Below are positions 30,095 to 58,965 of a DNA stretch of 64,000 bases, piece after piece. Where the stretch lies: the UHGV virus genome UHGV-1451962. One strand, written 5' to 3'. Made by a program: the position numbers and the translations under genes. The stretch's first letter is position 1, and each line of letters begins with the position of its first letter. This DNA comes from a virus. Below the pieces are notes generated by a model. It had not been told where the DNA came from. It did not search any database and was given only the letters and a program-made list of their open reading frames with translations.

Positions 30095-30133
30095 GGGGGG
30101 AAGGGGATTTTCCCTTCTTCCCTTTATTTTTTT
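30095..30133 (+). terminator. rho-independent terminator after the capsid gene
   Basis: 'ggggaaggggattttcccttcttccc' hairpin followed by 'tttatttttttg'. Confidence 0.5.
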
Positions 30134-30153
30134 GAGAAAAAGGAGAATTTATA

Positions 30154-30711
30154 ATGGAAAATTTTAATAAAGATACTATTTTACAGGTGACTAATCGTAG
30201 TAATGGTATTGTGATTTATTCTGTTCCAGATATGCATGTAAGCAGAGAGTTTAACCGCAAAGAAACTAAAAAAATTCCCTATGGTGAGCTTCTTGCTTTA
30301 GCACAGCAACCTGGAGGTAGAGAATTAATTTATAATTATTTATTTGTTCAAAATGCAGAAGCTTTAGAAAGTGCTTTAAATATTAAAGAACAACCTGAAT
30401 ATTGGTTAAAGGAAAGCGATATTCCTAAGTGGATTAACTCTTGCTCTCTTAATGAGTTCAAGGATGCTCTTGATTTTGCTCCTGAAGGAATCCTTAGTTT
30501 AATCAAGAAGTACGCAGTTGAGGTTCCTCTTAATGCCGCGGATAAAAGAGAAGCTTTAAAAGAACAGTTAAAATTTGATGTTGACAAAGCGATTATTAAT
30601 GCTTCTGTTGAAACAGAAGATGGAAAAACTGTCGCTCCTGGTCAGCAGATAGAGACAACTAAGCGTCGCTCTAATCCTACTTATAAAAAGATTGTAAAGA
30701 AAGACGAGTAA
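30154..30711 (+). CDS. hypothetical head/connector protein
   Basis: 185 aa, strong RBS. Confidence 0.4.
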   Translation: MENFNKDTILQVTNRSNGIVIYSVPDMHVSREFNRKETKKIPYGELLALAQQPGGRELIYNYLFVQNAEALESALNIKEQPEYWLKESDIPKWINSCSLNEFKDALDFAPEGILSLIKKYAVEVPLNAADKREALKEQLKFDVDKAIINASVETEDGKTVAPGQQIETTKRRSNPTYKKIVKKDE

Positions 30712-30731
30712 ATATAAAGGAGGACATTATT

Positions 30732-31226
30732 ATGTCAGATTATCCTATCATTGGGCCAAATACTACTTTTAAAGAAATTTATGATAGATTTTTTGGCAAA
30801 ATTACTGATGATATGTATGTGGAATGGACGAAAGAGGATACTGAAAAAGATGTAAAAAATATTTTAATTGACGCTATTCCTGGTTTTGAATTTCCACGTT
30901 TTCCTTTATATGATTACAATGAAGATTCTTATAATTGTCATTTAACTAGCGAGGAAATAAATATCCTTGCTATTTTAATGTATAATACTTGGCTTCAAAG
31001 ACAAGTAGCTTCTATTGAAAATACTAGGCAAAAATTTTCAGGTTCTGATTTTAAAATGACCAGTCAAGCTAATCATTTAGATAAACTTATCAAACTTAAA
31101 CAAGAAGGCGAAAGACAAGATCGCCACATGCAACGTTTATATAAACGTAGAAAAATTATTGATTCTAAGGGGTCAATTAAATCTAATTGGTCTACTCTTG
31201 CGGAGATAAGTACCTTTAATGATTAA
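30732..31226 (+). CDS. hypothetical head-tail connector protein
   Basis: 164 aa, strong RBS 'aaaggagga'. Confidence 0.4.
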   Translation: MSDYPIIGPNTTFKEIYDRFFGKITDDMYVEWTKEDTEKDVKNILIDAIPGFEFPRFPLYDYNEDSYNCHLTSEEINILAILMYNTWLQRQVASIENTRQKFSGSDFKMTSQANHLDKLIKLKQEGERQDRHMQRLYKRRKIIDSKGSIKSNWSTLAEISTFND

Positions 31227-31524
31227 TAAATATAATTTTGAGTTTGATAAAAAAGTGATTAAAGCAGACACTCACAGATTGGTTAATCAATTATGGAAAT
31301 TAATTCCAATGAGAGAAAATAATGAACCTTGGGATACACATTTATCAGTAATGATAGAAGAAATTAGTGGATTAAATGAAATATATCAAAATCAAATTGA
31401 TTTTTTAGTTTTATTATCTAAACTTGAAGGATTAAAATCTGAAGTTTGTGATGATTTTATGATATATAGAAAAACAGTTTTTCGTTGTATAGATTTATTA
31501 GTGAGGTTAATGCCTTATGAATAA
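31219..31524 (+). CDS. hypothetical protein
   Basis: 101 aa, overlapping coupled start. Confidence 0.35.
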   Translation: MINKYNFEFDKKVIKADTHRLVNQLWKLIPMRENNEPWDTHLSVMIEEISGLNEIYQNQIDFLVLLSKLEGLKSEVCDDFMIYRKTVFRCIDLLVRLMPYE

Positions 31525-32482
31525 TTTAAAATTAATGCACAAACGTCTTGAGTATTTTGGTGGGTTAAAACAAGAAGATAGAATGATAAATGATAAGTAT
31601 AGAGCTTTCTTAAAAAGTTTATTATATTCTTATCAAGGTTGTAATGTAGAATTAGTTCAAAGATATACAGATTGCTTTGAACTAGAAGAGATTCAACCGC
31701 AATATAGAGCTTTGATTAATCCTGATAAATTAAAACAAGACTATGATGATAAAGTTCTTTCTATTGATTATAAATATAATTATGATTTAGGAGATATTTT
31801 TAAGTGGGTTGGCACTGATACTAATTGGATTATTTATTTAAGAGCCTTAACAGAGGATGCTTATTTTAGAGGTGAAATTAGGCTTTGTCGCCATAAAATA
31901 AAATTTAAGGATGAAAAAGGAAATATTTGTTCTACTTGGGCGGCGATCAGAGGCCCTGTAGAAACACAAATTGAGTCTATCCAAAAAGGACAAGTTCGAA
32001 TTGATAAACCAAATTTAAGTTTAAATATTTTATTACCTAAAAATGAACAAACTTTATTTGCTTTTGATAGATATTCAGAATTTTTATTTGCTGGAAAATG
32101 CTGGCAAGTACAAGCCCCAGATTCGATTTCAATGAAGAATATTATTGAAGTTAATGCCGAAGAATATTATATTAATAAGGAAACAGATGATAAAATAGAA
32201 GAAATTAAAAATGGTTTAGTTATAGAGCCTGTTGATCCTTCTCCTGATACAACTATAAAGGGAGAAACTTTTATTAAGCCTAATATTGCTGAAATATATG
32301 AAGCCCCAGATGTGGGAGGAAAATGGAAAGTTGTTGAAAATTATCCAGTTTGTTTAATTCCTATTGATGATTTGCGGGTTAAAGTGATTTGGCAAAAATC
32401 GGTTAGTGGACAATTTACTTTAGAATGGTATAAAGACCATATTGTAGAAACAAAAACAATAGTGGTAGAATCATTATTCTAA
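31517..32482 (+). CDS. hypothetical structural protein
   Basis: 321 aa, coupled start. Confidence 0.4.
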   Translation: MNNLKLMHKRLEYFGGLKQEDRMINDKYRAFLKSLLYSYQGCNVELVQRYTDCFELEEIQPQYRALINPDKLKQDYDDKVLSIDYKYNYDLGDIFKWVGTDTNWIIYLRALTEDAYFRGEIRLCRHKIKFKDEKGNICSTWAAIRGPVETQIESIQKGQVRIDKPNLSLNILLPKNEQTLFAFDRYSEFLFAGKCWQVQAPDSISMKNIIEVNAEEYYINKETDDKIEEIKNGLVIEPVDPSPDTTIKGETFIKPNIAEIYEAPDVGGKWKVVENYPVCLIPIDDLRVKVIWQKSVSGQFTLEWYKDHIVETKTIVVESLF

Positions 32483-32501
32483 AGTTAAAGGAGAAAAAGG
32501 A

Positions 32502-33038
32502 ATGAAAAAAAATTTATATGAATTTCCAAAGTCTAGTTTTTTGGGTATGGCCAAAGATACAGCTTTGATTATAAATAAAATTTTAACCAATAAAAATATT
32601 TTAAAATTAATTTATTATACTTCTAAAGATTGGAAAGATAAACCTGATTTAAATAGTCAACAAATAAAAGAATTATTTGAAAATAAACAAATATCTAATA
32701 TACCTAAGATTACTGTTTTTCCAGATAAAGCTACTTATCTGAGAATTAGTTATGATGATTTTGTTCCGAATGATACTAATCCTTATTATAGAAATCATAT
32801 GATAGATATTAAAATTATTTGCCATTATGATTCATGGGATTTAGGAGATTTTGAGTTAAGACCTTATCGCATAGCTGGGGAGTTAGATTCTATTTTAGAT
32901 GGACAACATTTAACTGGAATTGGAGAATTACAGTTTCTTAGTGCAGAACAAATTCTCATAGATAATGAATTTGCAGGAATTAATTTAAGATATTGGGCCG
33001 TTAGAGGTAATGAAGATAAGGTTAATCCTTTGAATTAA
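32502..33038 (+). CDS. hypothetical structural protein
   Basis: 178 aa, RBS 'aaaggagaaaaagg'. Confidence 0.4.
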   Translation: MKKNLYEFPKSSFLGMAKDTALIINKILTNKNILKLIYYTSKDWKDKPDLNSQQIKELFENKQISNIPKITVFPDKATYLRISYDDFVPNDTNPYYRNHMIDIKIICHYDSWDLGDFELRPYRIAGELDSILDGQHLTGIGELQFLSAEQILIDNEFAGINLRYWAVRGNEDKVNPLN

Positions 33039-33039
33039 T

Positions 33040-33774
33040 ATGGATATTAAATTAGCATTAATGGCAGGTGTAGATATTCCTATACCTGAGTTACAAGCAA
33101 TTATTCATCAACCGCAATTAAAAGAAATTGCGAGGATGGGTGAACAAAATTTTTTTATGGCAATTCATTATTTATGTTTAAATAAAGAAGCTTTGTTAGA
33201 GGACGAAAGTCTTTTACAGAGTTTAACAAATTTTCAAGTATTGATGAAAGTTATTGAACAATCAGAAGATGCTGAGAAGAAAATAGCTTTAATAACTTTA
33301 CTTTCTCTTTTGTTTCCAGGATTTAAACCAATAATTACTCCAAAGAGCATTATTCTTAATAATTTGCAAACAAAACAAAGCATTTTGATAGATGATAATA
33401 ATTATGTTTTTTTACAAGAAATATTAAAACAAATGTTTTGTATAAGTAGTATTTTTCAGGGAGATAATGTTGTTTATAATCCTGCGAATGAAGCTGCAAA
33501 AAAAATTGCCGATAAATTAATGAAAGGCAGAAAAAGAGTTGCAGAATTAAAGGGAAAAAATCAAGAAAGCGTGTTAAGCAGATATGTTTCTATTTTAACG
33601 ATAGGGATTTCCTCTATGTCTTTAGAAAATTGTCTGGCTTTAACAATATATCAACTATTTGATTTAGTTGAAAGATATAATCTGTTTATTGAATGGGATT
33701 TAAATTTGCGGGTTAAACTTGCAGGTGGAGACCCCAAGCAAGATGCGGAAAATTGGATGAAAAACATTCATTAA
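33040..33774 (+). CDS. hypothetical structural protein
   Basis: 244 aa. Confidence 0.4.
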   Translation: MDIKLALMAGVDIPIPELQAIIHQPQLKEIARMGEQNFFMAIHYLCLNKEALLEDESLLQSLTNFQVLMKVIEQSEDAEKKIALITLLSLLFPGFKPIITPKSIILNNLQTKQSILIDDNNYVFLQEILKQMFCISSIFQGDNVVYNPANEAAKKIADKLMKGRKRVAELKGKNQESVLSRYVSILTIGISSMSLENCLALTIYQLFDLVERYNLFIEWDLNLRVKLAGGDPKQDAENWMKNIH

Positions 33775-33795
33775 TTTATAAGGAGGAAATTAAAC

Positions 33796-34737
33796 ATGAG
33801 ATTTGGTGTACGCGAAATCTGTGATGTTGTGTTGCGTGCTAAAGCAAGACAAACTCTAGGTACTCGTACTTTTTATAAGAATGAGCCTGTTCTTTATTTT
33901 GATACTTTAAAGACTTCTAGCCTAGAAGGTCAAGCTACCACAGTTTATGCTCAAGGCGGACGTGGTAACTCTAGATTAATTGCCTGGGAAGGCGAGAAGA
34001 CTCTTACATTTACAATGGAAGATGCACTGCTTTCTCCTGAAAGTTTTGCAATTCTTTCCGGTGCTGGTTTGATGGATGCTTCTGCGGAAGCCCCTATTTA
34101 TGTTCATACTACTTCTCAAGTGCAGGTTGATGCTCAAGGCAAGTTTACTGTGGATGGTAAAATTTGTTGGAATGGCGGTCGTGCACAAGAAGGAAATAAA
34201 GAAGGAACAAATTATGACTACCATAAAGAAGCAGATGTTTTCTGCATGGCTCTTGATGATGCTGGAGAGGTTAAAGTCGAGCCTTGTGTTCCTGCTTCCA
34301 TGACTTATGATGATACTAAGAAGAAAACTACTATTGTTTGTTATGCTGATGCTGAAGGTGTTGAGAAATTAGCTGAAGGTTCTGTTGTTCTTGTTGATTA
34401 TTATGTTAAGAAGATCGGCAATGCTAAGATGATTGAGATTACTCCTGATGAATTTGCTGGTAGTTATTACCTAGAAGGTTCTACTTTATTCCGTAGAGAG
34501 TCCGATGGTGTTGACATGCCTGCTGAGTTCATCATTCCTAATGGTAAGATTCAGTCTAACTTTACTTTCTCTATGGCAAGTTCTGGCGATCCTTCTACCT
34601 TTACCTTTACTATGGATGCTTTCCCTGGATATACTAAGTTTGATCCTACTAAAAAGGTTCTTGCTGCTATTCAGGTAATTGAAGATAGCACTGGTGAAGA
34701 TACCGCTTACCGCGAGAATTGTAAGGCGACTTTTTAA
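33796..34737 (+). CDS. major tail protein candidate (possibly C-terminally extended by frameshift)
   Basis: 313 aa, strong RBS 'aaggagga'; stop codon lies in a 'tttttaa' context followed by a start-less in-frame(-1) ORF. Confidence 0.4.
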   Translation: MRFGVREICDVVLRAKARQTLGTRTFYKNEPVLYFDTLKTSSLEGQATTVYAQGGRGNSRLIAWEGEKTLTFTMEDALLSPESFAILSGAGLMDASAEAPIYVHTTSQVQVDAQGKFTVDGKICWNGGRAQEGNKEGTNYDYHKEADVFCMALDDAGEVKVEPCVPASMTYDDTKKKTTIVCYADAEGVEKLAEGSVVLVDYYVKKIGNAKMIEITPDEFAGSYYLEGSTLFRRESDGVDMPAEFIIPNGKIQSNFTFSMASSGDPSTFTFTMDAFPGYTKFDPTKKVLAAIQVIEDSTGEDTAYRENCKATF

Positions 34738-35126
34738 TTACCCCAAATAGTAACGTTAAAATTAGTCAGCTAGGGAATACCTATTCTTTAGTTGGCACTG
34801 TAGATAAAACTGATATTCCCGTAGAATATCAAGGGCTATTTGGGGATATAGCAACAGAAGATACTTTAAATAAGTATGTGCTTGTTAGATTAAATAATAT
34901 TATTCCTAAAAATGGTGCTACTATTATTCAAAAGAATGAAGCTTTAAAATATTATTATAATAAAGGTGATGTTAATATCACTGAAGTTGGTGGCATTTAT
35001 ACCAAGACTAAGGAATATGATGGAACTGATTCTGATTATGCTTTGTTAATTAAGATTGGTTCTACTGCGGAAGTTACTATTAATGATACTAAATATATTA
35101 TTGATGGTTCTAAATTAACTAATTAA
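34725..35126 (+). CDS. start-less ORF in the -1 frame: candidate frameshift extension of 33796..34737
   Basis: -1 frame is open from 34725 to 35126 with no ATG or RBS; the ORF-track version (34878) needs a GTG start without RBS. Confidence 0.35.
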   Translation, partial: GDFLITPNSNVKISQLGNTYSLVGTVDKTDIPVEYQGLFGDIATEDTLNKYVLVRLNNIIPKNGATIIQKNEALKYYYNKGDVNITEVGGIYTKTKEYDGTDSDYALLIKIGSTAEVTINDTKYIIDGSKLTN

Positions 35127-35131
35127 TAAAA

Positions 35132-35169
35132 ATAGGGAAGAGTTTTACTCTTCCCTATTTTTTGTTTTA
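35132..35169 (+). terminator. rho-independent terminator
   Basis: stem atagggaagag/ctcttccctat, loop tttt, then 'ttttttgtttt'. Confidence 0.55.
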
Positions 35170-35179
35170 AGGAGAAAAT

Positions 35180-36586
35180 ATGAGTAGTGATTTTGTTTTT
35201 GAATATGATGGAACTAGTTATCCTAATATTCATAGTAAACCTGAACATTATATAGGAGGAACTTTAATTCCTTATGCTCAAACAACAAATAAAATGGCAG
35301 CTATCAAAACAAGATACTTAAATATGATGAAAGCGCAACTCGCCAGCCAACAAACAGATGCTAAAAAGAAAGCTTTTATAGAAGGTATGGAATTAGCAAA
35401 ATTTGAAAAAATGGAAAAACAAATAGAAAATAAAATTGTTGAAGAATATAATAAAGCTGCGAGCAAATTAGGAGGAAATATTGGTGGATATAATATGGGA
35501 GTTGATGGATATGTTGCAGCTTTAAAATCAGGAGATAAAGATGGAGCAATAAAATCATTAGCTCAAATAATAGCTGTTTTTCACCAAAATAAAGATGCTG
35601 TTGCTTTATATGAAATGTTAAAAGATAATCCTCAACAAATTTATTCTGATATTTCTATAAACGAATTAATTAATGTTCAAGCTTTTATGAAAGTTATTGA
35701 AGCTGCTATGAATGGAGAAAATTATCGGAATACTCTAAATTCAATTTTAACTAAACCTTCAGAAGCTTTAGCAGCTTTAATAGGAACATATGCTGAAGCA
35801 AAAAGTGATACAGAAGTAAAAGATTTATTACTTGGTACTCAATCACAAAATATTAGAGTAAGTTTTAGTGGAGAATTTAAAGAAATTCAATCTAAATCCG
35901 CGGATATTAGTTTAGGAAATTCATATTTTTCTTATAATATGGGTGGTTCACAAGGCAGTCAAGGTATTGAGCTTTATGACACTTTTGATGTAGAAACTTT
36001 TGCTACTGTAAAGACTTATAGAACCGCGGGAGGTTTGTCTTTAACAAGTTATTCTGGAAAAAATTCTTTCTTAATTCCAGCTTTACATCAATTGTATGGT
36101 GGTGGAAACTCAATTGATTATCAAATATATAATACTTTAGCTTTTAGTGCAGGGCAAGAATCAGGAGCATTGGATACTAACTTTAGAATTATTCGGCAGG
36201 ATTTAATTGCTAAATTTGCGGAAAACTTTTTAATTGGTTTTAATACGGCTGAAGCACAAAGAGTATTAGTATATAATTTTAGAGCATATCCAGTATTAAC
36301 TATATTAGCTGATATAGTTAATGATGCTAAAAATGCGGTTAGAGAAGGAAATTTATATGGTTCTTTAAGTAGTGGTGATTTATTTAGTATTTCTTTGACT
36401 AAAAGTGCTGTTGATAATAGTTGGGTTGGTCAAAAAGATATAACAAATAAAGCAAATAAAGCTGTTCGTGTAAAAAGAGCTTATAATCAAATTAATAGTA
36501 TTGCAATGCAAGGTCATATTAGTGGTAGATATGTTAGTTCTAATTTAAGAAAATATTTAACAGCGGCGAATGGAATACCTATTTAA
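35180..36586 (+). CDS. hypothetical tail protein
   Basis: 468 aa, RBS 'aaggagaaaat'. Confidence 0.4.
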   Translation: MSSDFVFEYDGTSYPNIHSKPEHYIGGTLIPYAQTTNKMAAIKTRYLNMMKAQLASQQTDAKKKAFIEGMELAKFEKMEKQIENKIVEEYNKAASKLGGNIGGYNMGVDGYVAALKSGDKDGAIKSLAQIIAVFHQNKDAVALYEMLKDNPQQIYSDISINELINVQAFMKVIEAAMNGENYRNTLNSILTKPSEALAALIGTYAEAKSDTEVKDLLLGTQSQNIRVSFSGEFKEIQSKSADISLGNSYFSYNMGGSQGSQGIELYDTFDVETFATVKTYRTAGGLSLTSYSGKNSFLIPALHQLYGGGNSIDYQIYNTLAFSAGQESGALDTNFRIIRQDLIAKFAENFLIGFNTAEAQRVLVYNFRAYPVLTILADIVNDAKNAVREGNLYGSLSSGDLFSISLTKSAVDNSWVGQKDITNKANKAVRVKRAYNQINSIAMQGHISGRYVSSNLRKYLTAANGIPI

Positions 36587-36650
36587 AATTTGCTTTTTTG
36601 TTAAATAAGTAGTATAATAAAAATAGAAATGATAAAAAGGAGATTTAAAA

Positions 36651-37199
36651 ATGTCTAAAGTTACTTTTAGTAAAATAAATATGAAAATGAAGATGAAAGA
36701 TGAATATGCGACTATTTATCTTAATCCAGAACTTGATGAGGAATTTAAAGTAGAAGTGCGTCAATATTTACCAATTGAGCAAAAGGCAGCTTTAATTACT
36801 TTTATTGCAGAAAACGCGATTGATGAAAAGACTGGTTGCTTTAGTGAAATTAGAATTGAGACTTATTTTGCTCTTGCTATTGCTAAGTATTATGCAGGAA
36901 TTGCTTTTACTGACAAGCAAATTGAAAATGCTGCTAAAATTTATGATGTATTAGAGAGTAATGGAGTTTTTACTAGAATTATGAGTGCTATTCCTGAATC
37001 TGAGTTTAACTTTTTAACTAATGCCGTTAGTAAAACTATTGCCGATATTGCAAGATTTAATAATTCTTTTGCCGGAATGTTGAATATGATCTCTGATAAT
37101 GCGGGCGGCATGGATGAACAGTTTACTGAAATTTTAGAGAAGATTAAGAATGGTGAAGGTTTAGAGACTCTTTCTGAAATTAAGAATATTGTTGGCTAA
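36651..37199 (+). CDS. tail assembly chaperone candidate
   Basis: 182-aa acidic protein directly upstream of the tape-measure gene. Confidence 0.35.
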   Translation: MSKVTFSKINMKMKMKDEYATIYLNPELDEEFKVEVRQYLPIEQKAALITFIAENAIDEKTGCFSEIRIETYFALAIAKYYAGIAFTDKQIENAAKIYDVLESNGVFTRIMSAIPESEFNFLTNAVSKTIADIARFNNSFAGMLNMISDNAGGMDEQFTEILEKIKNGEGLETLSEIKNIVG

Positions 37200-37250
37200 A
37201 TTAAGATAATATATTTCTAATAAATATTAAAATTTTATAGAGAATTTTTT

Positions 37251-37286
37251 AAAGCTCTGAGAAATTTCTCAGAGCTTTAATTTTTT
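37251..37286 (+). terminator. perfect 28-nt palindrome plus T-run
   Basis: 'aaagctctgagaaatttctcagagcttt' followed by 'aatttttt'. Confidence 0.5.
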
Positions 37287-37316
37287 ATATGCACAAAGAG
37301 TGAAAGGAGATTAATT

Positions 37317-40300
37317 ATGGCTAAAAGACTTAATTATGAAGTAGGCTTTACTGGCGATACTTCACAATTAAAAGCGTCTTTAAATGATGCTGTAAAAGCT
37401 TTACAAAAATTAGGTACTTCTTCAACTACTCAAATGACTCAGGGTATGCGGGAAGCATCTAAATCTGCATTAGAATTAGCTAATAATTTAAAAACTGCTA
37501 CTAATCAAGAAACAGGAAAATTAGATTTAGTAACTTTTAATAGAAATTTAGCTAATAGTAAGATGACCATTAGTGATTATGCTAAGCAATTATCTCAATT
37601 AGGCCCTACTGGTCAGCAAGCTTTTATGAAAGTTGCGCAAGCAGTTACTTCTGCGGAATTACCAATGAGACGTACTAATAAAGTATTGGATGAATTGTGG
37701 ACAACAATGAAAAATACTGCTCGTTGGCAATTAACCTCAAGTGCGTTGCATGGATTTATGGGAGCTTTAAATACTTGTGTTGGATATTCTAAAGCTTTAG
37801 ATAAATCTTTAAATTCTATCAGAATTGTTACTGAACAATCAGCTGAACAAATGGCTGATTTTGCAGTTCAAGCTAATAGTGCTGCAAAAAATTTAAGTAC
37901 AACAACAACAGATTATACGGATGCAGCATTGATATATTATCAACAAGGTTTAAATGACAAAGAAGTTCTTGATAGAACTGATATTACTATTAAAATGGCC
38001 AATGCCGCAAATGAAAGTGCTCAAGTAGTTTCTGACCAATTAACTGCGGTTTGGAATAACTTTTATGATGGTTCACAATCATTAGAGCATTATGCTGATG
38101 CGATGGTGGCGTTAGGTGCTGCTACTGCTTCTAGTTCAGATGAAATTGCTGGCGGCTTAGAGAAGTTTGCATCAATCGCAGACATGATTGGGTTAAGCTT
38201 TGATTATGCTGCTTCTGCTTTAGCAACAATTACTGCTACAACTCGTCAAAGCGAAGATGTTGTTGGTACTGCTTTGAAAACTATTTTTGCTCGTATTCAA
38301 GGTTTGAATTTAGGAGAGACCCTTGAAGATGGCACTGATTTAAATAAATATTCAGAAGCTTTGAGCAAAGTTGGTGTTTCAATTAAAGATTCTAATGGCG
38401 ATTTGCGTAATATGGATGCTATCTTAGATGATATAGGCGCAAAATGGGGTACTTTAACAAAAGACCAACAAGTAGCATTAGCGCAAACAGTAGCCGGCGT
38501 TCGTCAATACAACCAGTTAGTTTCTTTAATGGATAATTGGGATTTCTTTGAAGATAATTTAAAGATTGCCCAAAATTCTGAAGGTGAATTAAATAAGCAG
38601 GCTGATATTTATGCAGAATCTTGGGAGGCCGCGAGAAAAAGAGTTAAAGCTGCGGCAGAAGATATTTATGATAGCATTTTGAATCCTGAGAGCATTGTTG
38701 CTATTGATGATGTTTTAACTCCATTTTTAAGTGGAATAGCGCAAGTTGTTAATGCTTTAGGTGGATTAAAAGGTATTGCTTTAGTTGTTGGTTCTGTCCT
38801 TACTTCTGTTTATAGTGGTAAATTGGTAAATGGTTTACAAAATTTTGCTACTAATATTCAGATTATGACTGGACTTCAAGGAAAATTAACAAGAAGCTTA
38901 CAAGAACAAACCGTAACTGAAGCAGAAAATCTTGATATTATAATTGGTGGTAATCGTGCTTTAGAAACTGAAATTTCTTTGATGCGAGAAAAAGTTCAGT
39001 TACAAGGTATGATTAATAAATATACCAAGAATTATGACCAAAGTCAAATGTTACAAGTCAATCAGCGAGTAGGCGTTATTGATGCTTTGCGTCAACAAAT
39101 TATGGCTTCTGCTCAAAAACAAACTGCTTTGTTGGGTGAAGCTGAAGAATTTAAAACAACTATATTGTTAGATATAGAGCCAAAACCTGGTTGGGAAGAA
39201 AGATTTAGACAGAAAATTTTACAATTTAATACTAATATGGTTAATGGGCCATTAAAAAATCTTAATTCTGTCTTTTTATTTGATGAAAAAGATGATATAA
39301 CAAGAACTACTGAAAAAGTTACAGCAAGTATGCAAAAGTTAGCTTCTCAAGCTAGTTCTATAGAAGCAGTAAGACGAGCTTATAGCAATTTAAATATAGA
39401 TCAAAAAGAAAGTGCCGTTGTTTTACAAGAATTAATTCAAAAGACTGGTTTATGGAAAGCAGAAATGCAAAATTGGTCTACTCCTAAATTACAAGAATTT
39501 TTGAATAACTTAGGTACTCAATCAATAGAAGCTTCTAAAGGGATGCAACTTTTAAAACAAGCTTTAATGGAATTAAGTTATTCTCCTGAAGCTATTGATC
39601 AATTTATTAATTCGATAAGAAGATTAGCCGCTGAAGAACATAGTGCCGCAGAATATACAAGATTAATTAATGAAGAAATAAAAAAATTTACGAACAGTTT
39701 GCAAACTGGTAGTATTCAAAGTGAATCGGGTTGGGCAAAAACTGTTGTAAGCATGTCTAATCATCTTATGAATTTCGGAATGACTCTTTCCGCAGTTAGT
39801 AATATGGGTAAAGTTTTCAAAGAATCTATGGAAGGAAATATTACTGCGGGAGAAGCTTTCATTCAAATTATGACTAATTTGGGTATGATTTTGATGAGTG
39901 GCAGTAGCCTTTTCATGGCTTTGTCAAAATCAATGGGTGCTCTTGTTTCAGTTTATACTGGTGTAAATACTTCAGTAGCAGCTCTTACTTTTGTTACAAA
40001 ATTAAATACTGCGGCTGAAGAAGGAAATATAGCTGCAAAAATAGCTAATGTTGCAATTACAAAATTGCTTACTGTTTCAGAAGGTAGTTTAGCTGCTGCT
40101 ATGGGTATAACTATTGGCGTTTTAGCTCTTTTTGCGGCTGGAATTGTGTTTGCTGTAAAAATAATTGATGGTTTAATTGTAACTCAAAAAGAAGCCAGTC
40201 AAGCTATTGCGGATGCTACTCAAAATTATACTGATCAAAAGAGCAAATTAGATGAGTTAAATAGTTCTTTAGAGCAAACTAGACAAAAGATAGAAGAATT

Positions 40301-43300
40301 AGAATCTAAAGATTCTTTATCTCTTGTTGAACAAGATGAGCTAGCTAATTTAAAACAGCAAGAAGCTTCTTTAGAGAGACAAGCTGATCTAAGAGAGCGT
40401 ATAGTTAAAGCTAAACAAGCAGAAATGGCTTATGCTATTGCAGATAATTTTGACAAAAAATATGACAAGACTTATAAGGTAGAGCCAAAAGGTAGAACTG
40501 GTGCTGACACTTCTAATTTTAAAACACAAGAAGATTTAGATAAATGGTATAATAGTTTAAATTCTGACCAACAGGCAAAAGCATTAGACCAATATCAGAA
40601 TTGGACGCAACAGATAGCAGAAGCTACTGCTCAAATGACTTCTGAAGTAGGAGAAGATTTAGCTGAATTAGAACAAGACTATGCTAATTATTTAGGTGCT
40701 GTTGATTCTGGAGCAATTGTGGCCGATCCGTCTAAGATTGCAGATATGCAGGATAAATTAGCAGAATTAAGAAAATTAATATATCCTACTGATAATCAGT
40801 ATTATGAAATGGTTATCCGTCCGGTATTAGATGATGAATCTTTTGATGAAGTAAGAGATAAGATTTTTAGAGCTTTATCTTCTGGAGATATTAAAGGTGC
40901 TGGATTAGCCTTAACAGATGAAATGCGTTCTGCCATTGAAGCTGCTGGAATTTCTGTTGATGATTTATTTAATCAAATTGCAGAAAGAATGTCTCAGGCC
41001 AGAGAGACCATTAAATCTGAAATGGGCGGTACCGAAGAGCAATTAAATAAATTAACTGCCGAAGATTGGGATATTATTCTTACCTTGGATTTAGAAAACA
41101 TTGGTTCTTTTAGAGAATTAATGAAAGCTATTGAAAATGCTAAAAATACAGACCTTAAAGTTAAAGTAGATACTTCTGAGTTAGATGCAGCAAAAGATAA
41201 AATAGAAAGTTTAAATACTAATGAAGAGCCATTGGAAAAAGCCTTGATGTCTTATAAAGAACAAGGTTATCTTACTATGGATCAGACTTATGAATTAATT
41301 AAAGCTAACGAAGAATATGCTCAATATATTAAAAAAGTTGGAGATGAGTATGTTTTAACTACTCAATCTTTAACTGACTTTACTGAAATGGAAAAAGCTG
41401 AGAAATTGGCTTTAGACCAAGCTATTGAAGCTATGCAAAACAAAGGTAAAGTTGATAGAGATTATGCTCAGCAGTATGTTGATCTTTATAGTAGTTTAAT
41501 TGAAAGTAGTAAAAATTGGTCTGACCAAGAACGTGCAGATAGCGGAGAAAATTTTGATAAAAATACTGAAGCACTTAGAAGACAAGCTCAAGCGTTCCAA
41601 GAAGGAAAGATTAGCGCAAGTGAATATTTTGATGCAATAAATCAAAGAGTTAGTGAAACTGGGGATAATTTTGCAAAATTAAGTGATGGTATAGATGGTC
41701 TTAAAGAATCTGATTATGCAAAAACTATGATTTCCTCTACTACTGCTTTGGCTGATGGTTTTAAAGATTTAATCAGTGAAGTTGAAGCTGGCGGTACTAA
41801 TATGCAAGAGTATTATGCTGGTGCAGTTAAAGGTACTAAAGCTTTAATGAATATCACTGCTAAATCTAATAAATATATCACCAAAACAGCAGATGGTTAT
41901 AAAGTTGTTACTGATAATATTGATGATGCAACTAAAGCTACACAAGACTACAAAGATGCTCAGAAAAAAGTTCAAAATTTAAATACTTGGGAAAAACAAG
42001 TTGATCAAGCTGAAGGATTTAAAAAAGCAATAGATGATATTACTTCTTATTATGATTATTTAAAAAATTATTTAAATGATAATAATTGGCTTGAGTTACC
42101 TGATAATTTTGATACAACAACAACCAAATTTAAAAATATGTGCGATACTATGGCTGCTGATATTTGGTCTTTAAAAGATACAAATGCTGAAGCTTTTAGT
42201 GCGATTATGGCTCACATGGAAACTGAAAATGCTGGTTTTGATTCTAGTTTAATTACTTCTCAAAGTCAATTAGCTAGTGCTATGCAAGGAAATGCAACAA
42301 TAGCTTCTTCTGCTATTAATGGTCTAGCTGCTCAAAGTCAGATTAGTATTGGTACTTTATGTCAAATTGGTGGACAGTTATTACAATCTTTGGCAAGTGC
42401 TATTAGCAGTTTTAGTTATACTATTCAGGCGACTGGTGTTGTTGATAATCCTGGTGGTATTGGTTTAGGCGGAGGATTAGTCGATAAAATTGGTGCTTTA
42501 CTTACAACAGGAGGGAAAATTCCTTTTGAATGGGATATGCCTTCTGCCCATATTGATTTAACAGGTTCTGGTTCTGGTGGTTCACCTATGTTTAGCACTA
42601 CTGGTTCTGCAAGAGCGCAAAAAGTTAATGGCTCTGGTAAATCAAATTATATTCGTTCAAAAGACACTGGTGCTGCTAGCAAAGGTGAGTCATCAGGACT
42701 TTTAGAAAATATTTCTAAATTTGGTACTGCATTAGAAGAATATGGTAAACAATCTGTATTGTCTCAAGGTTTAAAAGCATTTGCCCCTTCAGGAGGAGGA
42801 ACTGGTGGTAGAACTCTTAACCCTAGTGGTATTTCTACTGATAACAATCGTCCTTCTGGTGGAGGAGGAGGAAAAGGCAAAGGTGGTAAAGGAAAAGGCG
42901 GAGGTGGTAAAGGAAAGGGAGGAAAAGGAAAAGGCGGAGGTGGTGGCTCCGGCTCAGATGATTCTCCTGAAATCGAAGATGAAGAAATTTTTGATGATAG
43001 ATACCACGATATTAATAATAGACTAGAAGAACAAAGTCAGCTACTAGATAAGATTGATACTGCTAAAGATAGAGCTTTTGGTGTTAAGAAATTAGAAAAA
43101 TATAAAGAAAAAATTGAAGCAATTAATAAAGAACAAGAATTATATAAAGAAAAATTAAAAAAGACTGAGGAATATTTAAAAGAAGATTTAACTGATTTAC
43201 AAAAGAACTTTTCTGGTGTTAAATTAAATATAGACTCTGATAGTAAAGCTTTATTAAATTATGAAGATTTAGAAAAATGGGCAATAGAAGAATATAATAA

Positions 43301-45932: not shown

Positions 45933-45936
45933 TTTA

Positions 45937-45968
45937 AAGGGGAGAATTTTTCTCCCCTTTATTTTTTT
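45937..45968 (+). terminator. rho-independent terminator
   Basis: stem aaggggaga/tctcccctt, loop atttt, then 'tatttttttg'. Confidence 0.55.
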
Positions 45969-45986
45969 GAGAGAAAGGAGTTTATA

Positions 45987-50306: not shown

Positions 50307-50324
50307 GAAAAAGGAGATAATAAA

Positions 50325-50684
50325 ATGACATTATTAAATGATGAAATTTATGGTTTATATGAAGCATTATATGAATTAAAAGAAAAAAATGAAATTTCTT
50401 TACCAGTTACTTTAGCTTATCAATTAGTTAGAAATATGCAAAAGTTAGAACCTTTGTATATGGCTATTGAAGAAGCTAGAAGAAATTTATTTAAAGTTTA
50501 TGTAGATGAAAATGATATTATACCAACTAATAAAATGAATGAAGTAAATCAAAAGCTTAGAGAATTAGGAATGATAAAAGAAGAGCTTGATTTATATATG
50601 GTTAGATTAAAGGATATATCATATATTAATTTACCTATTGATATTGTAAGAAAATTAATGCCAATTATTAAAGAGGACGATTAA
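50325..50684 (+). CDS. hypothetical protein
   Basis: 119 aa, RBS 'aaaaggagataat'; palindromic terminator 50671-50703 overlaps the stop. Confidence 0.4.
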   Translation: MTLLNDEIYGLYEALYELKEKNEISLPVTLAYQLVRNMQKLEPLYMAIEEARRNLFKVYVDENDIIPTNKMNEVNQKLRELGMIKEELDLYMVRLKDISYINLPIDIVRKLMPIIKEDD

Positions 50685-50779
50685 TCGTCCTCTTTTTCTT
50701 TTTATTGGACAAGGATAGTTCATATTTTAAATTAAAAAATTAAAATAAATAGATAAATGAGATAAAGGAGTGTGATTTT

Positions 50780-53506
50780 TTGGCAACTGGTATTTTTCCT
50801 CCATTGATAAATAGTTCGCAGCCTGCTTTTACTTATGATGTTTCTGACTATATTATTTATTTTACATTACCTGATTTGATGTCTTTAAGTAGTATAAAAC
50901 ATATTCAAATTAGATTAGTAAAACAAACTAATAACAGAACAATAGTAAATACTTCTATTTATCCAGATGGAATTATTTATAAATCGAAAGATGAAATTGG
51001 TCAAAAAGGCTCACAATATACTATTTCTATAAATTTACAAGATTTAGAATCTGGGTGGAGTGCTGGAGAATTATATAAGGTACAATTACGTTTTGGAATA
51101 AATACACTTTATAATTCAATATCAGATTTTGCTAATTGGAAAAAACAGCAAATAGAAAAAAGTGCATTTTCTGAATGGTCAACAGTTATGGCAATAAAGG
51201 CTATTAATGAACCAGTAATTGAAATAAAAAATGCTACTTCTGTGAAAGAAAGCGTTCAATCAGCAAAAAATCTTGAAACTTCTTTAACGCCACTGATTAT
51301 AGGAGCTTGCAATTTTGTTACAAGTAATAGAGAATCAGTAGATAAATATAAATTTATTTTATATAATTCACATGGTAATAAAATTGAAGATAGTGGTTGG
51401 TTACAACATAATGCTTCCGCAGATAATACAGATTCACATCGTTTTTCTACTGTTTTAGAAAATGGACAAGATTATAGTGTTATTTATCAAATTGTTTCAA
51501 TAAATGGCTATGAAATTAGTTCTGCACGATATAATTTTCAGGTAAGAGAGACATATTTAAGTCAATTAGTTGGAGTAACCCTTAATGTTGATGATTCAGA
51601 TATTTCATGTATAGAAAATGCTTGTTTAAAGATATATATAAATTCTGATTCTCCTTTAAGTGGTAACTATGTATTAATTAGAACTTCTGAAAAAAGTAAT
51701 TATACAATATGGGAAGATTTAAGTTATTTCTTATATTCTAACCATACTTTTGTTAATGAATTAATTTATACTGATTATACTATTGAAAATGGCATTAAAT
51801 ATAAATATGCTTTTCAACAAGAAAATAGTGCAAGATTGCGGACTTCTCCTTTATTTGAAATTGATAAGCCTGCCAGAGGAATTAATTTTGAACATAGTTA
51901 TTTATATAAAGATGGAGTTCAATTAAAATTAGAATATAACTTTGAGTTATCTAGTTTTAAACATAGTGTCTTAGAGTCAAAGAGTGATACATTGGGTTCT
52001 AAATATCCTACTATTTTCCGCAATGGTCATGCTTATTATGCAGAATTTCCTGTTTCAGGATTAATTTCTTTTCACATGGATGATGATAATACTTTTTTTG
52101 AACTTAAAAGAGATGGGTATTATTATAAAAATAAGTTGATTATTCCTTTTGATAATATTGAAGATACAAAAATAGATACTAATCTAACACATAGTAATAT
52201 TTTTATTGAAAAAATTTTTAGAGATAAAGTAGAAGAATTTTTAAATGATGGAAGTAGTAAATTATATAAATCTGCGACAGAAGGAAATATTATTATAAAT
52301 TTAATGAATATTTCTTTAAGTCCTGAAAAAACATTAAGTAGAATGATTTACAAATTTTCTGCTACTGCTTATGAAGTTGCGGATTTTAATTTAAGTAATT
52401 TAAATAATTTAAATATTATTGATATAGGTAATTTTGAAGAATTTTCTGCTGAAGAAACTGTAGATTTATTTGGTCAATTAAGTGGAATGTATATTGGCAC
52501 TTTAAGTTTAAATAATAACTTAAATACTGATAGACCCACAAGTATTATAAATAACAATACTAAAGAAAATCTTTTAGAAAAAATAAAAGAACAAGTTGAA
52601 TATAATGTTGGCGGTGGTTATAGATATAAATTTAATAATTTAACTTCAATTTGGGTAGAACAATATCCTGTATTAACTTTTGAAGCTGAATTAAGAGAAT
52701 TAAATGCGGAACGCGCAGATTTGGCGCATCAAGGATTATCAACAAAAGAAGTTGATGAAAAAATCGCTGAATATAATAAGTTAATTAATTTTATAACTAC
52801 TGAACAAACTTATCCTTTAATTACATTAGTTATTAATGGTAAAGATTTTTCTTTAGGCAAGAATAAAGTTTTTGTTTTACAAGATGTTTTTGATAATTTA
52901 TCTAATATCTATTTAAAATACAGTGGCCCTATTATTATAAATTATACTTGTAAAGTTACACAAGTGGAAGATATTTCTAAAACAGTTCAAGCTATTGAAA
53001 CTTCTTTAGTATGGGGTCAATTAGCTGGAATTTTTACTTCTACTGATAAAACTTTATTGAGTTATAACTTTAGATATAATGATATAAAGCAATATCAAAT
53101 TCCTGATATAAATGGGGATTATGATAATATTAATTTTGATTTATTTAAATCTGAGAATATTTTTGATATTGTTAAAGAAAAAAGTAGATTCCAAATAGAA
53201 GAAATTTATGATATAGAAAATGGTTTTTCTAATTATGATAAAGATACTGATACTTGGGATAATGGAACTATTTTTTATAATTTTACTGATATATTATCTA
53301 TGGAAATTGAAGCAGACCAAGGTAGTGTATTATTACTTGATAATAATGATGGTTCAACTACTCAAATTACGATTGGTACAACTGAAAAATATGTTTTGAA
53401 CCCTTCTGATACTTTAATAAAAGGTATTCGCTTTGAAAAACCTACTTATGCAATTATAAATTATAAATGTGCTACAATGCAAACTACTAAAAATGTTGGT
53501 GGATAA
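50780..53506 (+). CDS. large tail protein (908 aa)
   Basis: TTG start 9 nt after RBS 'aaaggag'. Confidence 0.4.
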   Translation: MATGIFPPLINSSQPAFTYDVSDYIIYFTLPDLMSLSSIKHIQIRLVKQTNNRTIVNTSIYPDGIIYKSKDEIGQKGSQYTISINLQDLESGWSAGELYKVQLRFGINTLYNSISDFANWKKQQIEKSAFSEWSTVMAIKAINEPVIEIKNATSVKESVQSAKNLETSLTPLIIGACNFVTSNRESVDKYKFILYNSHGNKIEDSGWLQHNASADNTDSHRFSTVLENGQDYSVIYQIVSINGYEISSARYNFQVRETYLSQLVGVTLNVDDSDISCIENACLKIYINSDSPLSGNYVLIRTSEKSNYTIWEDLSYFLYSNHTFVNELIYTDYTIENGIKYKYAFQQENSARLRTSPLFEIDKPARGINFEHSYLYKDGVQLKLEYNFELSSFKHSVLESKSDTLGSKYPTIFRNGHAYYAEFPVSGLISFHMDDDNTFFELKRDGYYYKNKLIIPFDNIEDTKIDTNLTHSNIFIEKIFRDKVEEFLNDGSSKLYKSATEGNIIINLMNISLSPEKTLSRMIYKFSATAYEVADFNLSNLNNLNIIDIGNFEEFSAEETVDLFGQLSGMYIGTLSLNNNLNTDRPTSIINNNTKENLLEKIKEQVEYNVGGGYRYKFNNLTSIWVEQYPVLTFEAELRELNAERADLAHQGLSTKEVDEKIAEYNKLINFITTEQTYPLITLVINGKDFSLGKNKVFVLQDVFDNLSNIYLKYSGPIIINYTCKVTQVEDISKTVQAIETSLVWGQLAGIFTSTDKTLLSYNFRYNDIKQYQIPDINGDYDNINFDLFKSENIFDIVKEKSRFQIEEIYDIENGFSNYDKDTDTWDNGTIFYNFTDILSMEIEADQGSVLLLDNNDGSTTQITIGTTEKYVLNPSDTLIKGIRFEKPTYAIINYKCATMQTTKNVGG

Positions 53507-53520
53507 AGAGGAGGAAGAAT

Positions 53521-55416: not shown

Positions 55417-55431
55417 GGAGGAATAAATTAA

Positions 55432-56040: not shown

Positions 56041-56053
56041 GGAGGTGCTATAA

Positions 56054-58243: not shown

Positions 58244-58262
58244 AGAATAAGATATTCTTTTC

Positions 58263-58297
58263 TAAGGGGAAGATTTTATTCTTCCCCTTATGTTTTA
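58263..58297 (+). terminator. rho-independent terminator
   Basis: stem taaggggaaga/tcttcccctta, then 'tgttttat'. Confidence 0.5.
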
Positions 58298-58313
58298 TAT
58301 AAGGAGGAAAATT

Positions 58314-58916
58314 ATGGCTTTATTTAAAGTTTTTTATGGAACAGAAGCTGAGATGAATCAAGTCGCAGTAAAAGAGTCTTATGCTTATATCCTAGAAGAG
58401 AATGATTGTATGTATGTCGATTTTAATAATGCTAGACATAAATTAAATGCGGGATATGCAGAAAAACTTCGGAAATTTAATGCGGCTGGAGCAGTTGAAA
58501 TAGAAATTGATCCAGAAGAATTGGTTTTAAATTCTGATATTATTGATATAGAACATGGTGGCACTGGTGGCAAAACTGCGGCTGAAGCAAGAACTAATTT
58601 AGATGTTTATAGTAAAACAGAAGTAAGCGATAATATTAAAACTGCTACTGATAAGGTCACTTCTAAGGCTTATCCTGCTACATTGTCCGTAGGAGCTTGG
58701 ACATTAGATGGAGAAGTTTATAAAATGTCTTATTTAATTGAAACTTTGAAGTGTGGTGCTGATGGTACGGTTCCGCCAATTATTACTTACACCAACAATT
58801 TAGAAGAATATTCTAAAATTGAAAAGGCTACTGCTACTCCTGGTTTTGGAGTTACTTTCGAGATAAAAGAAAAACCTACTGATAGTATAGGTATTATTAT
58901 TGTAGATAATTGTTAA
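58314..58916 (+). CDS. hypothetical protein (last plus-strand gene)
   Basis: RBS 'aaggaggaaaatt' precedes ATG 58314 (MALFKVF...); ORF track start 58290 is upstream of the RBS. Confidence 0.45.
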   Translation: MALFKVFYGTEAEMNQVAVKESYAYILEENDCMYVDFNNARHKLNAGYAEKLRKFNAAGAVEIEIDPEELVLNSDIIDIEHGGTGGKTAAEARTNLDVYSKTEVSDNIKTATDKVTSKAYPATLSVGAWTLDGEVYKMSYLIETLKCGADGTVPPIITYTNNLEEYSKIEKATATPGFGVTFEIKEKPTDSIGIIIVDNC

Positions 58917-58927
58917 TAAAAATAAAA

Positions 58928-58965
58928 TGGGTAAGAGCTAAATGCTCTTACCCATTTTTTTGTTT
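58928..58965. terminator. bidirectional terminator between convergent genes
   Basis: stem tgggtaagagc/gctcttaccca, loop taaat, T-run on plus strand and A/T-run on minus. Confidence 0.55.

Follow-up and report, generated by a model that had tools for sequence, protein, structure and literature searches.

Conserved terminator-like hairpins at module borders in the virion-gene block of a gut siphovirus

The virion-gene block and its hairpins

The window, a stretch of 64,000 nucleotides from the virus genome UHGV-1451962, belongs to a large siphovirus from the clade of phAss-1 and Enterococcus phage EF1. Relatives of phAss-1 and EF1 are widespread, uncultured gut siphoviruses of about 100–200 kb, many of which read TAG as sense. 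We analysed the plus strand of a head-and-tail gene block of ~30 kb (29025–58964), of which 712 nt (2.4%) are intergenic. A sigma-like gene (18847–19893; phrog_5767) stands at the head of the block; a Pfam search of its product gave no support for this assignment. The major capsid protein gene (29025–30062, plus strand; phrog_4088, 2e-63) matches the ‘major capsid protein’ of the Bacillus phages Kirov and Thrax in tblastn and shows 50% identity to that of phAss-1. Further along the same strand lie the tail-tube (major tail) gene (33796–34737; phrog_2729 ‘virion structural protein’, 3e-56) and the gene of the tape-measure protein (37317–45932, 2871 aa; PF10145, 1.5e-27, and PHROG tape-measure families). 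The tail-tube gene has a possible −1 frameshift extension from 34734 to 35126, where the −1 frame, read by eye, is open from the ACTTTTTAA stop context through 35126; a Pfam search of this putative extension returned no match. The early region of the same phage carries consensus sigma-A promoters and many hairpin-plus-T terminators, so host polymerase and intrinsic termination appear to be its normal mode of transcription.

We scanned the block for hairpins with 7 or more perfect base pairs in the stem, a ΔG of −12 or lower and a T-run. The plus strand of 29025–58964 holds exactly seven such sites (H1–H7), against 0.05 ± 0.22 in 40 dinucleotide shuffles, whereas on the minus strand only H4 and H7 score. 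Two further counts of hairpin sites gave 22 against 7.9 and 15 against 5.7. All seven lie in or touch the intergenic 2.4% of the block, and in a 40-nt sliding fold of 18800–59000 they account for seven of the ten most stable windows. A sequence-only reading had placed six hairpins along the block and proposed a calculation of their free energies. All six (H1–H6) were found where it had put them, H7 was added at the block end, and RNAfold on 56-nt windows gave ΔG values of −22.5 (H1), −20.9 (H2), −20.3 (H3), −18.4 (H4), −19.0 (H5), −18.8 (H6) and −25.7 (H7). Overall, the hairpins have stems of 11–16 bp, loops of 3–6 nt and a ΔG of about −17 to −26 kcal/mol. A T-rich tail with at least five T within 8–10 nt follows every stem (7/7), the poorest being that of H6 (TGTTTTATAT). 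A d'Aubenton-Carafa-type score is positive at six of the seven sites and borderline at H6 (about −1.3).

The first junction, J1, follows the capsid gene. H1 lies 31 nt 3' of the capsid stop and has a G-rich stem of 13 bp (30094–30123) followed by TTATTTTTTT (site 30094–30133, plus strand); the ribosome-binding site (RBS) GAGAAAAAGGAG occupies 30134–30145 and the next ATG is at 30154, with head-completion, tail-tube and tape-measure genes downstream on the plus strand. At J2, after the tail-tube gene, the 16-bp stem of H2 (35128–35162) is followed by TGTTTT (site 35128–35168, plus strand), the RBS AAGGAG (35169–35174) and an ATG at 35180. The tape-measure gene is flanked by J3 and J4. H3 (stem 37249–37280, 14 bp, then TTTTTTATAT; site 37249–37290, plus strand) precedes the RBS AAAGGAG (37303–37309) and the tape-measure ATG at 37317, and H4 (stem 45935–45961, 12 bp, then TTTTTTT; site 45935–45968), a plus-strand site that scores on both strands, precedes the RBS GAGAGAAAGGAG (45969–45980) and an ATG at 45987. 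H5 at J5 (stem 50670–50695, 11 bp, then TTCTTTTTAT; site 50670–50705, plus strand) holds in its loop the stop codon of gene 50325–50684; an AT-rich spacer of 84 nt follows, with the RBS at 50764–50770, ~69 nt past the stem, and a TTG start at 50780. H6 at J6 is terminator-like, with an 11-bp stem (58263–58290) and a weak tail (site 58263–58300, plus strand), and is followed by the RBS AAGGAGG (58301–58307) and an ATG at 58314. H7 (58924–58958; z −8.2) is a bidirectional terminator at the block end, between the convergent genes 58314–58916 (plus) and 58965–59402 (minus). As H7 has the same build as the others and sits where a terminator is expected, it counts in favour of reading all of them as terminators. 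The gap from stem to start codon at J1–J4 and J6 is 17–36 nt and is filled by T-run and RBS, and the single long intergenic gap that lacks a hairpin is 36587–36650.

The earlier proposal of one shared hairpin type holds in part. A purine-rich 5' arm, GGG(G)A(A/G)G, is common to H1, H2, H4 and H6 and, loosely, to H7, but H3 (AAAGCTCTGAGA) and H5 (AAAGAGGACGAT) are unlike the other stems in sequence. Similarly, an RBS within ~20 nt, which it had given for every junction, was found after H1, H2, H4 and H6 (about 8–16 nt); H3 and H5 have theirs at a distance of about 23 and about 69 nt, respectively. Its observation that two junctions are nearly identical was borne out: J1 and J4 share CTTTATTTTTTTGAGARAAAGGAG, at 30122 and 45957 and nowhere else (0 expected). 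Their identical stretch of 24 nt covers the T-run and RBS part only, the stems being unrelated in sequence.

We conclude that H1–H7 have the canonical structure of intrinsic terminators and lie on the coding strand, with a GC-containing stem-loop, a 3' U-tract, placement between genes or over a stop codon above chance and, at J1–J4, a structure kept among relatives despite sequence change. In structure they are the same as the L-shaped terminators of Firmicutes (Bacillus type), with a stem of 11–16 bp, a loop of 3–6 nt, a U-tract and often an A-tract, the upstream A-tract making some sites bidirectional (H4 and H7). What is unusual is their placement within an operon, just ahead of the next RBS.

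Conservation of the junctions among relatives

Megablast of 29000–37400 against INPHARED gave no match, and relatives were therefore sought by protein search. A contig, ERZ1023658 NODE-134, is 99% identical to this one, and Enterococcus phage EF1 and Enterocloster phage PMBT10 are relatives that can be cultured. A hairpin follows the capsid gene (J1) in all 31 distinct IMG/VR relatives, as well as in lineages L009–L014 and in EF1; phAss-1 has no hairpin 3' of its capsid gene. In 17 lineages the distance from the J1 hairpin to the RBS is 8–15 nt, which again leaves no space for a promoter. The J2 terminator after the tail-tube gene was present in 45/45 viral contigs and at 48/48 loci with enough flank. 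At J3, a hairpin with T-run lies 35–60 nt 5' of the tape-measure start in each of 66 distinct relatives, with widely different stems. The T-runs of J2 and J3 are present in essentially every relative, and the 4.2 kb around these two junctions contain almost no further terminator-like sites in the relatives. All 28 distinct relatives examined at J4 have a hairpin after the tape-measure gene, about half of them with a clear T-run; L185 has one too. Enterococcus phage EF1, whose capsid protein is 38% identical, has a hairpin with T-run after its capsid, tail-tube and tape-measure genes. We conclude that the positions of J1–J4 are kept across the clade while the stem sequences turn over.

The two distal junctions differ in this respect. 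As queries for relatives, a 1439-aa protein found none and a 631-aa tail protein returned a single locus, so that conservation of J5 and J6 is judged on one relative, L185. This lineage, the sole one covering them, showed no such hairpin at the equivalent places; it does have an equivalent of H7, a bidirectional site at 15961–15982 of its sequence.

In some relatives (L009–L011, L013/L151, L144, L150 and the L166–L172 group) the hairpin at J1 or J4 is kept while its T-run is minimal or missing. Strong hairpins that lack a coding-strand T-run are seen, for example, in L009 (CCCCTCCTAACCGCTGAG), in L151 at both J1 and J4 and in L144 at J4. At such sites the hairpin itself, not termination, may be the selected feature.

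Elements upstream of H1 and H3

A sigma-A-like promoter, TTGATT-17-TATAAT (30059–30087, plus strand; a 10/12 match), precedes H1. Its −10 element ends 6 nt before the stem, so that the predicted start is the base of the hairpin. A promoter of at least 10/12 precedes the J1 hairpin in 33% of relatives, compared with 1.6% of shuffles; L172 and L181 have a 12/12 match. This promoter lies mid-operon, 3' of the capsid gene, and not at the head of the late genes. No promoter enrichment was found at J3 or J4, the layout of a promoter leading into a terminator was not seen at J2–J4, and promoter-like matches across the block are at chance level (106 against 95.7).

At J3, a short motif that we call U (ATAGAGAAT; ATAGGAATA in most relatives) lies 3 nt 5' of the H3 stem (37237–37245, plus strand). 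It is complementary to the apex of H3 and co-varies with it across relatives. Paired cells make up 91% of the alignment for the U:apex helix, compared with 85.5% after shuffling, and 17 double changes were counted against 4.1 (0/500); the duplex energy is −4.88 for matched against −3.80 for mismatched pairs (0/5000). The helix is nevertheless far weaker than the terminator. J3 resembles the trp, T-box and BglG/LicT-RAT attenuators in lying in the leader of one particular gene and in having a conserved upstream segment that co-varies and can pair with part of the terminator. It differs from them in that the alternative helix is much the weaker one and in that U looks like the 5' arm and does not complement it, which leaves no classic 2:3 antiterminator. 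The leader contains no leader peptide and no ligand- or tRNA-binding fold, and Rfam returned nothing at its gathering threshold, either for the window or for 20 relatives, and nothing by E-value on 21000–25400.

Several other readings of U and the J3 leader were considered and rejected. U is confined to J3, unlike a generic late promoter. Were U and the apex the −35 and −10 elements of a promoter, their spacing would range from 11 to 24 nt in about 20 lineages (hand count), and pairing fits better. A classic antiterminator, with an upstream segment pairing with the terminator 5' arm, was set aside for lack of lineage-specific complementarity. Nor is the TAG inside U the stop of a frameshifted chaperone reading frame, as the −1 frame already ends at 37202.

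It is conceivable, though doubtful, that J3 is the core of a clade-wide riboregulatory leader and that, in parallel, the J1 hairpin is a 5'-terminal stabilising stem on transcripts from the abutting promoter. Such a leader would comprise an AT-rich upstream hairpin with motif U (ATAGGAATA) as its 3' arm, the GC-rich terminator, whose apex GATTATTC co-varies with U and is able to pair with it, and a third part present in many lineages, an AT palindrome (TTATTTTGCAAAATAA) ahead of the RBS. If so, a phage or host factor acting on U or on the U:apex helix would set the entry of polymerase into the 8.6-kb tape-measure gene.

Probable read-through and graded expression along the block

We consider it fairly probable, judging from sequence features, that H1–H6 act as Rho-independent terminators at module borders which, being leaky or overridden, grade expression along the block. 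Termination itself, its partial nature and the tuning of dosage are what we infer from these features. Host core RNA polymerase would terminate at hairpins within a single long run of virion genes on one strand, at borders after the capsid gene (J1), after the tail-tube gene (J2), and before (J3) and after (J4) the tape-measure gene; J5 and J6 would be borders of this lineage only, and H7 the true end of the block. Because the gap at J1–J4 and J6 holds an RBS and is too short for a promoter, the genes downstream would be reached by read-through, and since these include essential genes, internal termination must be partial or overridden. The likely products are nested transcripts with common upstream starts and 3' ends at successive terminators. 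Message abundance would drop step-wise along the block, each upstream message ending in a protective 3' hairpin, and a strong extended Shine-Dalgarno sequence (GAGAnAAAGGAG) just past the T-run would allow fresh ribosome loading on read-through RNA.

The sequence-only reading had suggested that attenuation or partial termination sets the stoichiometry of head versus tail products. Attenuation gains from the terminator structures, the conservation of J1–J4 and the obligatory read-through, and loses at J5 and J6, which are missing in L185. The ‘head versus tail’ division is only partly apt, since a high-copy tail-tube gene and low-copy head-completion genes both lie downstream of J1. The most universally conserved pair, J2 and J3, instead sets the tail-tube gene apart from the low-copy genes for the chaperone, the tape measure and the distal tail, and this would be the largest and best-conserved step in abundance. 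Several points count against leaky terminators. With six of them in series, the last genes would receive very little RNA unless every one of the six is weak or overridden, and hundreds of copies of the tail-tube protein are required although its gene lies downstream of J1, where simple serial attenuation is thus mismatched to copy number. The hairpins without a T-run in some relatives, the lack of one after the phAss-1 capsid gene, the absence of J5 and J6 from L185 and the sigma-like gene, which would allow for unseen late promoters, weigh on the same side. If the leaky-terminator reading holds, the junctions provide a putative transcription map (capsid; head completion to tail tube; a variable gene plus the chaperone; tape measure; distal tail), and the conserved borders could serve as annotation landmarks and could be used as natural insulators or attenuators when phages of this clade are engineered.

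Leaky internal terminators are already known and textbook matter; the J3 leader motif and the promoter-into-hairpin layout of J1 go beyond them. In T7, essential tail and packaging genes beyond the terminator Tphi are reached by read-through. T7 has its own single-subunit polymerase and class-specific promoters, whereas here the enzyme is presumably the multisubunit one of the host, no capsid-specific promoter was identified, and four to six sites stand in place of one. The T7-like phage LUZ100 has a strong terminator directly 3' of its capsid gene, ‘similar to T7’ (PMC10134795), and H1 shares its position with both phages: it comes straight after the major capsid gene, and essential genes follow it on that strand. 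In Pseudomonas phage LUZ7, studied by ONT-cappable-seq, substantial read-through occurs at more than 60% of phage terminators, giving step-wise termination, and inefficient terminators are described as balancing expression in T7 (PMC9163698). The present block resembles LUZ7, where several intrinsic-type terminators within same-strand cassettes yield nested transcripts through successive read-through, read as a means of balancing expression (PMC9163698). The terminators of LUZ7 were measured and ours are predicted; the phages compared have Gram-negative hosts, and clade-wide positional conservation was not reported for LUZ7.

An alternative that we judge unlikely is that the terminators are efficient and are overridden by processive antitermination of the phage, through a lambda Q-like protein or an RNA element. 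Their task would then be to hold off virion-gene expression until the late phase and to block transcription that is stray or early, and not to grade dosage. Six strong terminators in series before essential genes are indeed hard to square with unassisted read-through, and in the window as in a third of the relatives a good sigma-A-like promoter would fire into the J1 terminator. The layout resembles that of the lambda late operon, a very long run of virion genes preceded by a promoter with a terminator close behind it (pR'–tR'), which is passed by Q antitermination; the resemblance extends to late genes that would need passage through terminators. However, the terminators here are spread through the operon with a promoter at J1 only, the layout being absent at J2–J4, and neither a Q-like gene nor a Q-binding element or a pause signal was recognised. 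Pfam and PHROG matches contained no Q-, N- or LoaP-like protein in the 64 kb in view of about 135 kb, and Rfam no put/nut-like family. The time-dependent read-through of LUZ7 terminators was read as possible antitermination (PMC9163698).

It is distinctly unlikely that the main task of the hairpins is to protect 3' ends or to bar processing, which would stabilise the upstream messages (capsid, tail tube, tape measure) against 3' exonucleases and would leave termination a secondary role or none. The strong J1 and J4 hairpins that relatives keep without a coding-strand T-run would fit such a role as well as termination, and the position of the sites after the genes with the highest expression would suit it too. 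A stabiliser needs no T-run, though, and T-runs are found at all seven sites of the window and at J2 and J3 of essentially all relatives. Processing by RNase III was rejected, since a T7-type R site is an irregular double-stranded stem of about 20 bp with an internal loop, and the stems here, with 11–16 perfect bp and small loops, are too short and too perfect.

We regard as very unlikely a chain of independent units, each junction pairing a terminator with a restart promoter, in place of one attenuated operon. The sigma-A-like promoter 5' of H1, enriched in relatives, and the AT-rich spacer past H5 would suit it, and with a sigma-like gene heading the block, late promoters of other sequence could exist unseen. 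Yet there is no room between T-run and RBS at J1–J4 and J6, the J1 promoter lies 5' of its hairpin, so that its transcripts still meet the terminator, and promoter-like matches show neither enrichment at J3 and J4 nor an excess in the block.

Chance palindromes, or DNA-level features of an AT-rich genome such as repeats or scars left by recombination at module borders, without any role as RNA, could have explained the identical stretch of J1 and J4 and the lineage-specific J5 and J6, but this reading is effectively refuted by shuffling and conservation: the sites far exceed expectation, are intergenic with a strict strand bias, and keep their positions in dozens of lineages while their stems change and are not copies of one another. 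A repeat element was rejected on the same unrelatedness of the stems, only the T-run and RBS part being common to J1 and J4.

Hairpins in the virion gene block

The + strand from ~18.8 kb to 58.9 kb forms a single phage gene block. It opens with a sigma-like gene (18847-19893, +), matched only by phrog_5767 'sigma factor' (1e-40) and by no family in a Pfam search, ahead of which lie a bidirectional terminator (18708-18744) and a promoter, TTGACT-18-TATAAT (18783-18812). The portal (25391-27013), major capsid (29025-30062), six small virion genes, a tail-tube-like gene (33796-34737), two genes of unknown function, the tape-measure gene (37317-45932, 2871 aa) and large distal-tail genes follow on the same strand.

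The sequence-only reading had placed hairpins with T-runs at six junctions: after the capsid gene (J1, 30095-30133), after the frameshift extension behind the tail-tube gene (J2, 35132-35169), after the chaperone-like gene that precedes the tape-measure gene (J3, 37251-37286), after the tape-measure gene (J4, 45937-45968), after the small 50325 gene (J5, 50671-50703) and after the fibre gene (J6, 58263-58297). All six were found there, and their predicted RNA folds are stable (56-nt windows, -18 to -22.5 kcal/mol). A seventh hairpin (58924-58958), the strongest, lies between convergent genes and closes the block. Applied to 29025-58964, a strict search that demanded 7 bp or more of perfect stem, dG <= -12 and a T-run returned exactly these seven on the + strand and, on the - strand, only the two symmetric ones among them, versus 0.05 ± 0.22 sites in 40 dinucleotide-preserving shuffles; intergenic sequence, 2.4% of the region, holds all seven. 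The built-in terminator scanner was concordant (22 vs 7.9 and 15 vs 5.7, overlapping calls counted), and the seven account for seven of the ten most stable 40-nt windows across 18.8-59 kb. Three strong hairpins of the block lie outside the junction terminators; the stop codon of gene 23961-24971 falls within one of them (24958-24997, 16-bp AT-rich perfect stem, -21.2 kcal/mol), which, having only TTT after the stem, is not a canonical terminator.

Two junctions had been described as nearly identical, and the tails of J1 and J4 indeed share a 24-nt identity, unique within the window, that runs from the 3' stem end through the T-run into an extended Shine-Dalgarno, GAGAnAAAGGAG. Because this RBS form recurs at three further window sites, two of them RBSs, and throughout the relatives, we read the identity as a common functional constraint and not a mobile repeat. 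The expected RBS about 20 nt after the hairpin fails at J5 (~69 nt), and the GGGGAGA-type arm said to be shared is lacking at J3 and J5.

Conservation in related phages

By protein similarity, the phage groups with uncultured 100-200 kb gut siphoviruses including phAss-1 (OQ749652), a member of the 'code 15 clade' (PMC10607447); Enterococcus phage EF1 is more distant. TAG is read as sense in virion genes of several relatives, not in the window or its closest relative (L014/L185). Four close relatives with capsids 50-83% identical (L007, L009, L010 and L013) have intact virion genes only when TAG is taken as sense, their + strand coding fraction being 0.34-0.62 under the standard code versus 0.80-0.85 with TAG read through. 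Since the window and L014 keep to the standard code, the clade interleaves recoded phages with non-recoded ones (PMC10607447).

Loci were gathered from IMG/VR and metagenomes with two probes, the capsid protein and the tape-measure N-terminus. At J3, each of the 66 distinct sequences has a strong hairpin with T-run 35-60 nt ahead of the tape-measure start, with highly divergent stems (e.g., CTCTGAGA, GGGGATAAGAG, GCCGGTTAGA). The sole other recurrent terminator-like site in 4.2 kb around J3 is J2, found just after the tail-tube gene and 1.8-2.25 kb upstream of J3 in 48/48 and 45/45 loci. A G-rich hairpin (-18 to -28 kcal/mol) follows the capsid gene in 31/31 distinct relatives, 8-15 nt before the next gene's RBS in the 17 lineages inspected, and J4 has its hairpin in 28/28, about half with a clear T-run. 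Even EF1, with a capsid just 38% identical, carries hairpin and T-run after the capsid, tail-tube and tape-measure genes; phAss-1, whose tail module is rearranged, has no hairpin after the capsid gene. The one relative covering J5 and J6 lacks both at the equivalent places and has J4 and the terminal bidirectional site. We conclude that the observation is real, statistically clear and evolutionarily conserved.

The gene after the J2 terminator varies by lineage (L140-L184), with differing N-termini behind a conserved terminator-RBS, and homologues of the window's own gene (35180-36586) were detectable only in L009 and L010. Flanked by the two most conserved terminators, this position ahead of the chaperone-like gene has the look of a slot for variable cargo.

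Probable partial termination and its alternatives

The seven hairpins have every sequence-level hallmark of intrinsic terminators. Host polymerase with intrinsic termination is this phage's normal regime, because its early region consists of consensus sigma-A promoters and hairpin+T terminators; late promoters of unrecognised sequence may also be in use, since a sigma-like gene heads the block. At J1-J4 and J6, only 17-36 nt separate the stem end from the next start codon. As the T-run and RBS fill this gap, the essential genes downstream could be expressed only by polymerases that pass the hairpin, and termination at these junctions would be either partial or actively overridden.

We favour partial termination with nested transcripts, which we consider fairly probable. 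Such transcripts have been measured in other phages (PMC9163698), and T7 has a terminator right after its capsid gene in the same layout as J1 (PMC10134795). The arrangement is an instance of a well-known design. J2 and J3, the best conserved, would probably form the largest step, with the high-copy tail-tube gene on one side and low-copy genes on the other. The proposal that the hairpins set head versus tail stoichiometry is only partly apt: with the tail-tube gene placed after J1, that site alone cannot account for the copy numbers.

That efficient terminators are instead overridden by phage antitermination seems unlikely; it is suggested by the serial arrangement of six terminators and by a promoter that runs into the terminator at J1. 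There, a sigma-A-like promoter (TTGATT-17-TATAAT, 30059-30087) stops 6 nt short of the hairpin, and promoters like it, matching at up to 12/12 positions, stand ahead of the J1 hairpin in one third of lineages versus 1.6% of shuffles. Transcripts from the window's promoter would start at the hairpin base; the layout may reflect a Q-type arrangement, stabilisation of a 5' end or production of a short RNA. Selection of the hairpins chiefly as 3' stabilisers, suggested by the retention of a J1 or J4 hairpin without T-run in some relatives, is quite improbable. A restart promoter behind each terminator is improbable too; scant space and the lack of promoter enrichment at J3 and J4 weaken this reading.

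The tape-measure leader and other features of the window

Most lineages carry a short motif, U (ATAGGAATA; ATAGAGAAT at 37237 in the window), 2-10 nt upstream of the J3 stem and nowhere else in the loci. It complements the conserved apex sequence of the J3 hairpin (GATTATTC), and the two change together. Duplex energy with the own-locus apex is -4.88 kcal/mol versus -3.80 with those of other loci (0/5000 permutations), and the RNAalifold consensus picks this helix, with 91% of cells paired versus 85.5% in shuffles and 17 double changes versus 4.1 (0/500), figures that are inflated by related sequences and by deriving the helix from the same alignment. Motif U is also the 3' arm of an AT-rich hairpin further upstream (2/5000). 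Rfam held no family matching the leader, and classic antiterminator pairing was rejected for want of support. We conclude that J3 is more than a bare terminator; a regulated terminator is possible but rather unlikely. In many relatives (L015-L139), not in the window, the stretch from the J3 T-run to the tape-measure RBS contains TTATTTTGCAAAATAA, a perfect AT palindrome whose centre is GC, GCGC, GATC or TATA with symmetry retained.

The tail-tube gene ends in ACT TTT TAA (34729-35126 region), and the -1 frame stays open for 130 more codons to the J2 hairpin. A -1 slip on TTTTT would fit this arrangement and would yield a C-terminally extended tail-tube protein; a Pfam search of the putative extension gave no match.

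Some 13 perfect 12/12 sigma-A promoters (TTGACA-17-TATAAT, TG extended -10), mostly on the - strand, occupy 4200-14900 and 18669-18697, where GC is 0.38-0.42 versus ~0.30 in the rest of the window. Each belongs to a repeated promoter, 5'UTR and RBS module before a small gene, usually followed by a hairpin+T terminator, and the region looks like an early-gene array under host polymerase. Between early genes, at 15087-15263, an AT-rich unit of 34 nt (...TCTAAATCAATTTCAAATTTAAAAAACGA) is repeated in tandem four to five times and may be an iteron or origin-like array. On the - strand, genes for a cell-wall hydrolase (17142-17714) and a ClpP-like protease (17728-18327) adjoin the divergent promoter region at ~18.7 kb.

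Three homing-endonuclease genes, HNH/NUMOD (21998-22717), GIY-YIG (22860-23669) and HNH-like (25015-25371), interrupt the packaging-gene region (21088-25371). The non-coding stretches between them (21721-21997 and 23670-23960), GC-richer and structured-looking, look like group I intron cores on visual inspection and had no Rfam match. A diversity-generating retroelement occupies 60051-63998 on the - strand, with a reverse transcriptase gene (60051-61307, PF00078), a 108-nt template repeat (61586-61693) and a variable repeat (62384-62491) at the 3' end of a Big_3-domain gene (62370-63998); 21 of the 22 mismatches between the repeats coincide with coding-strand adenines of the template.
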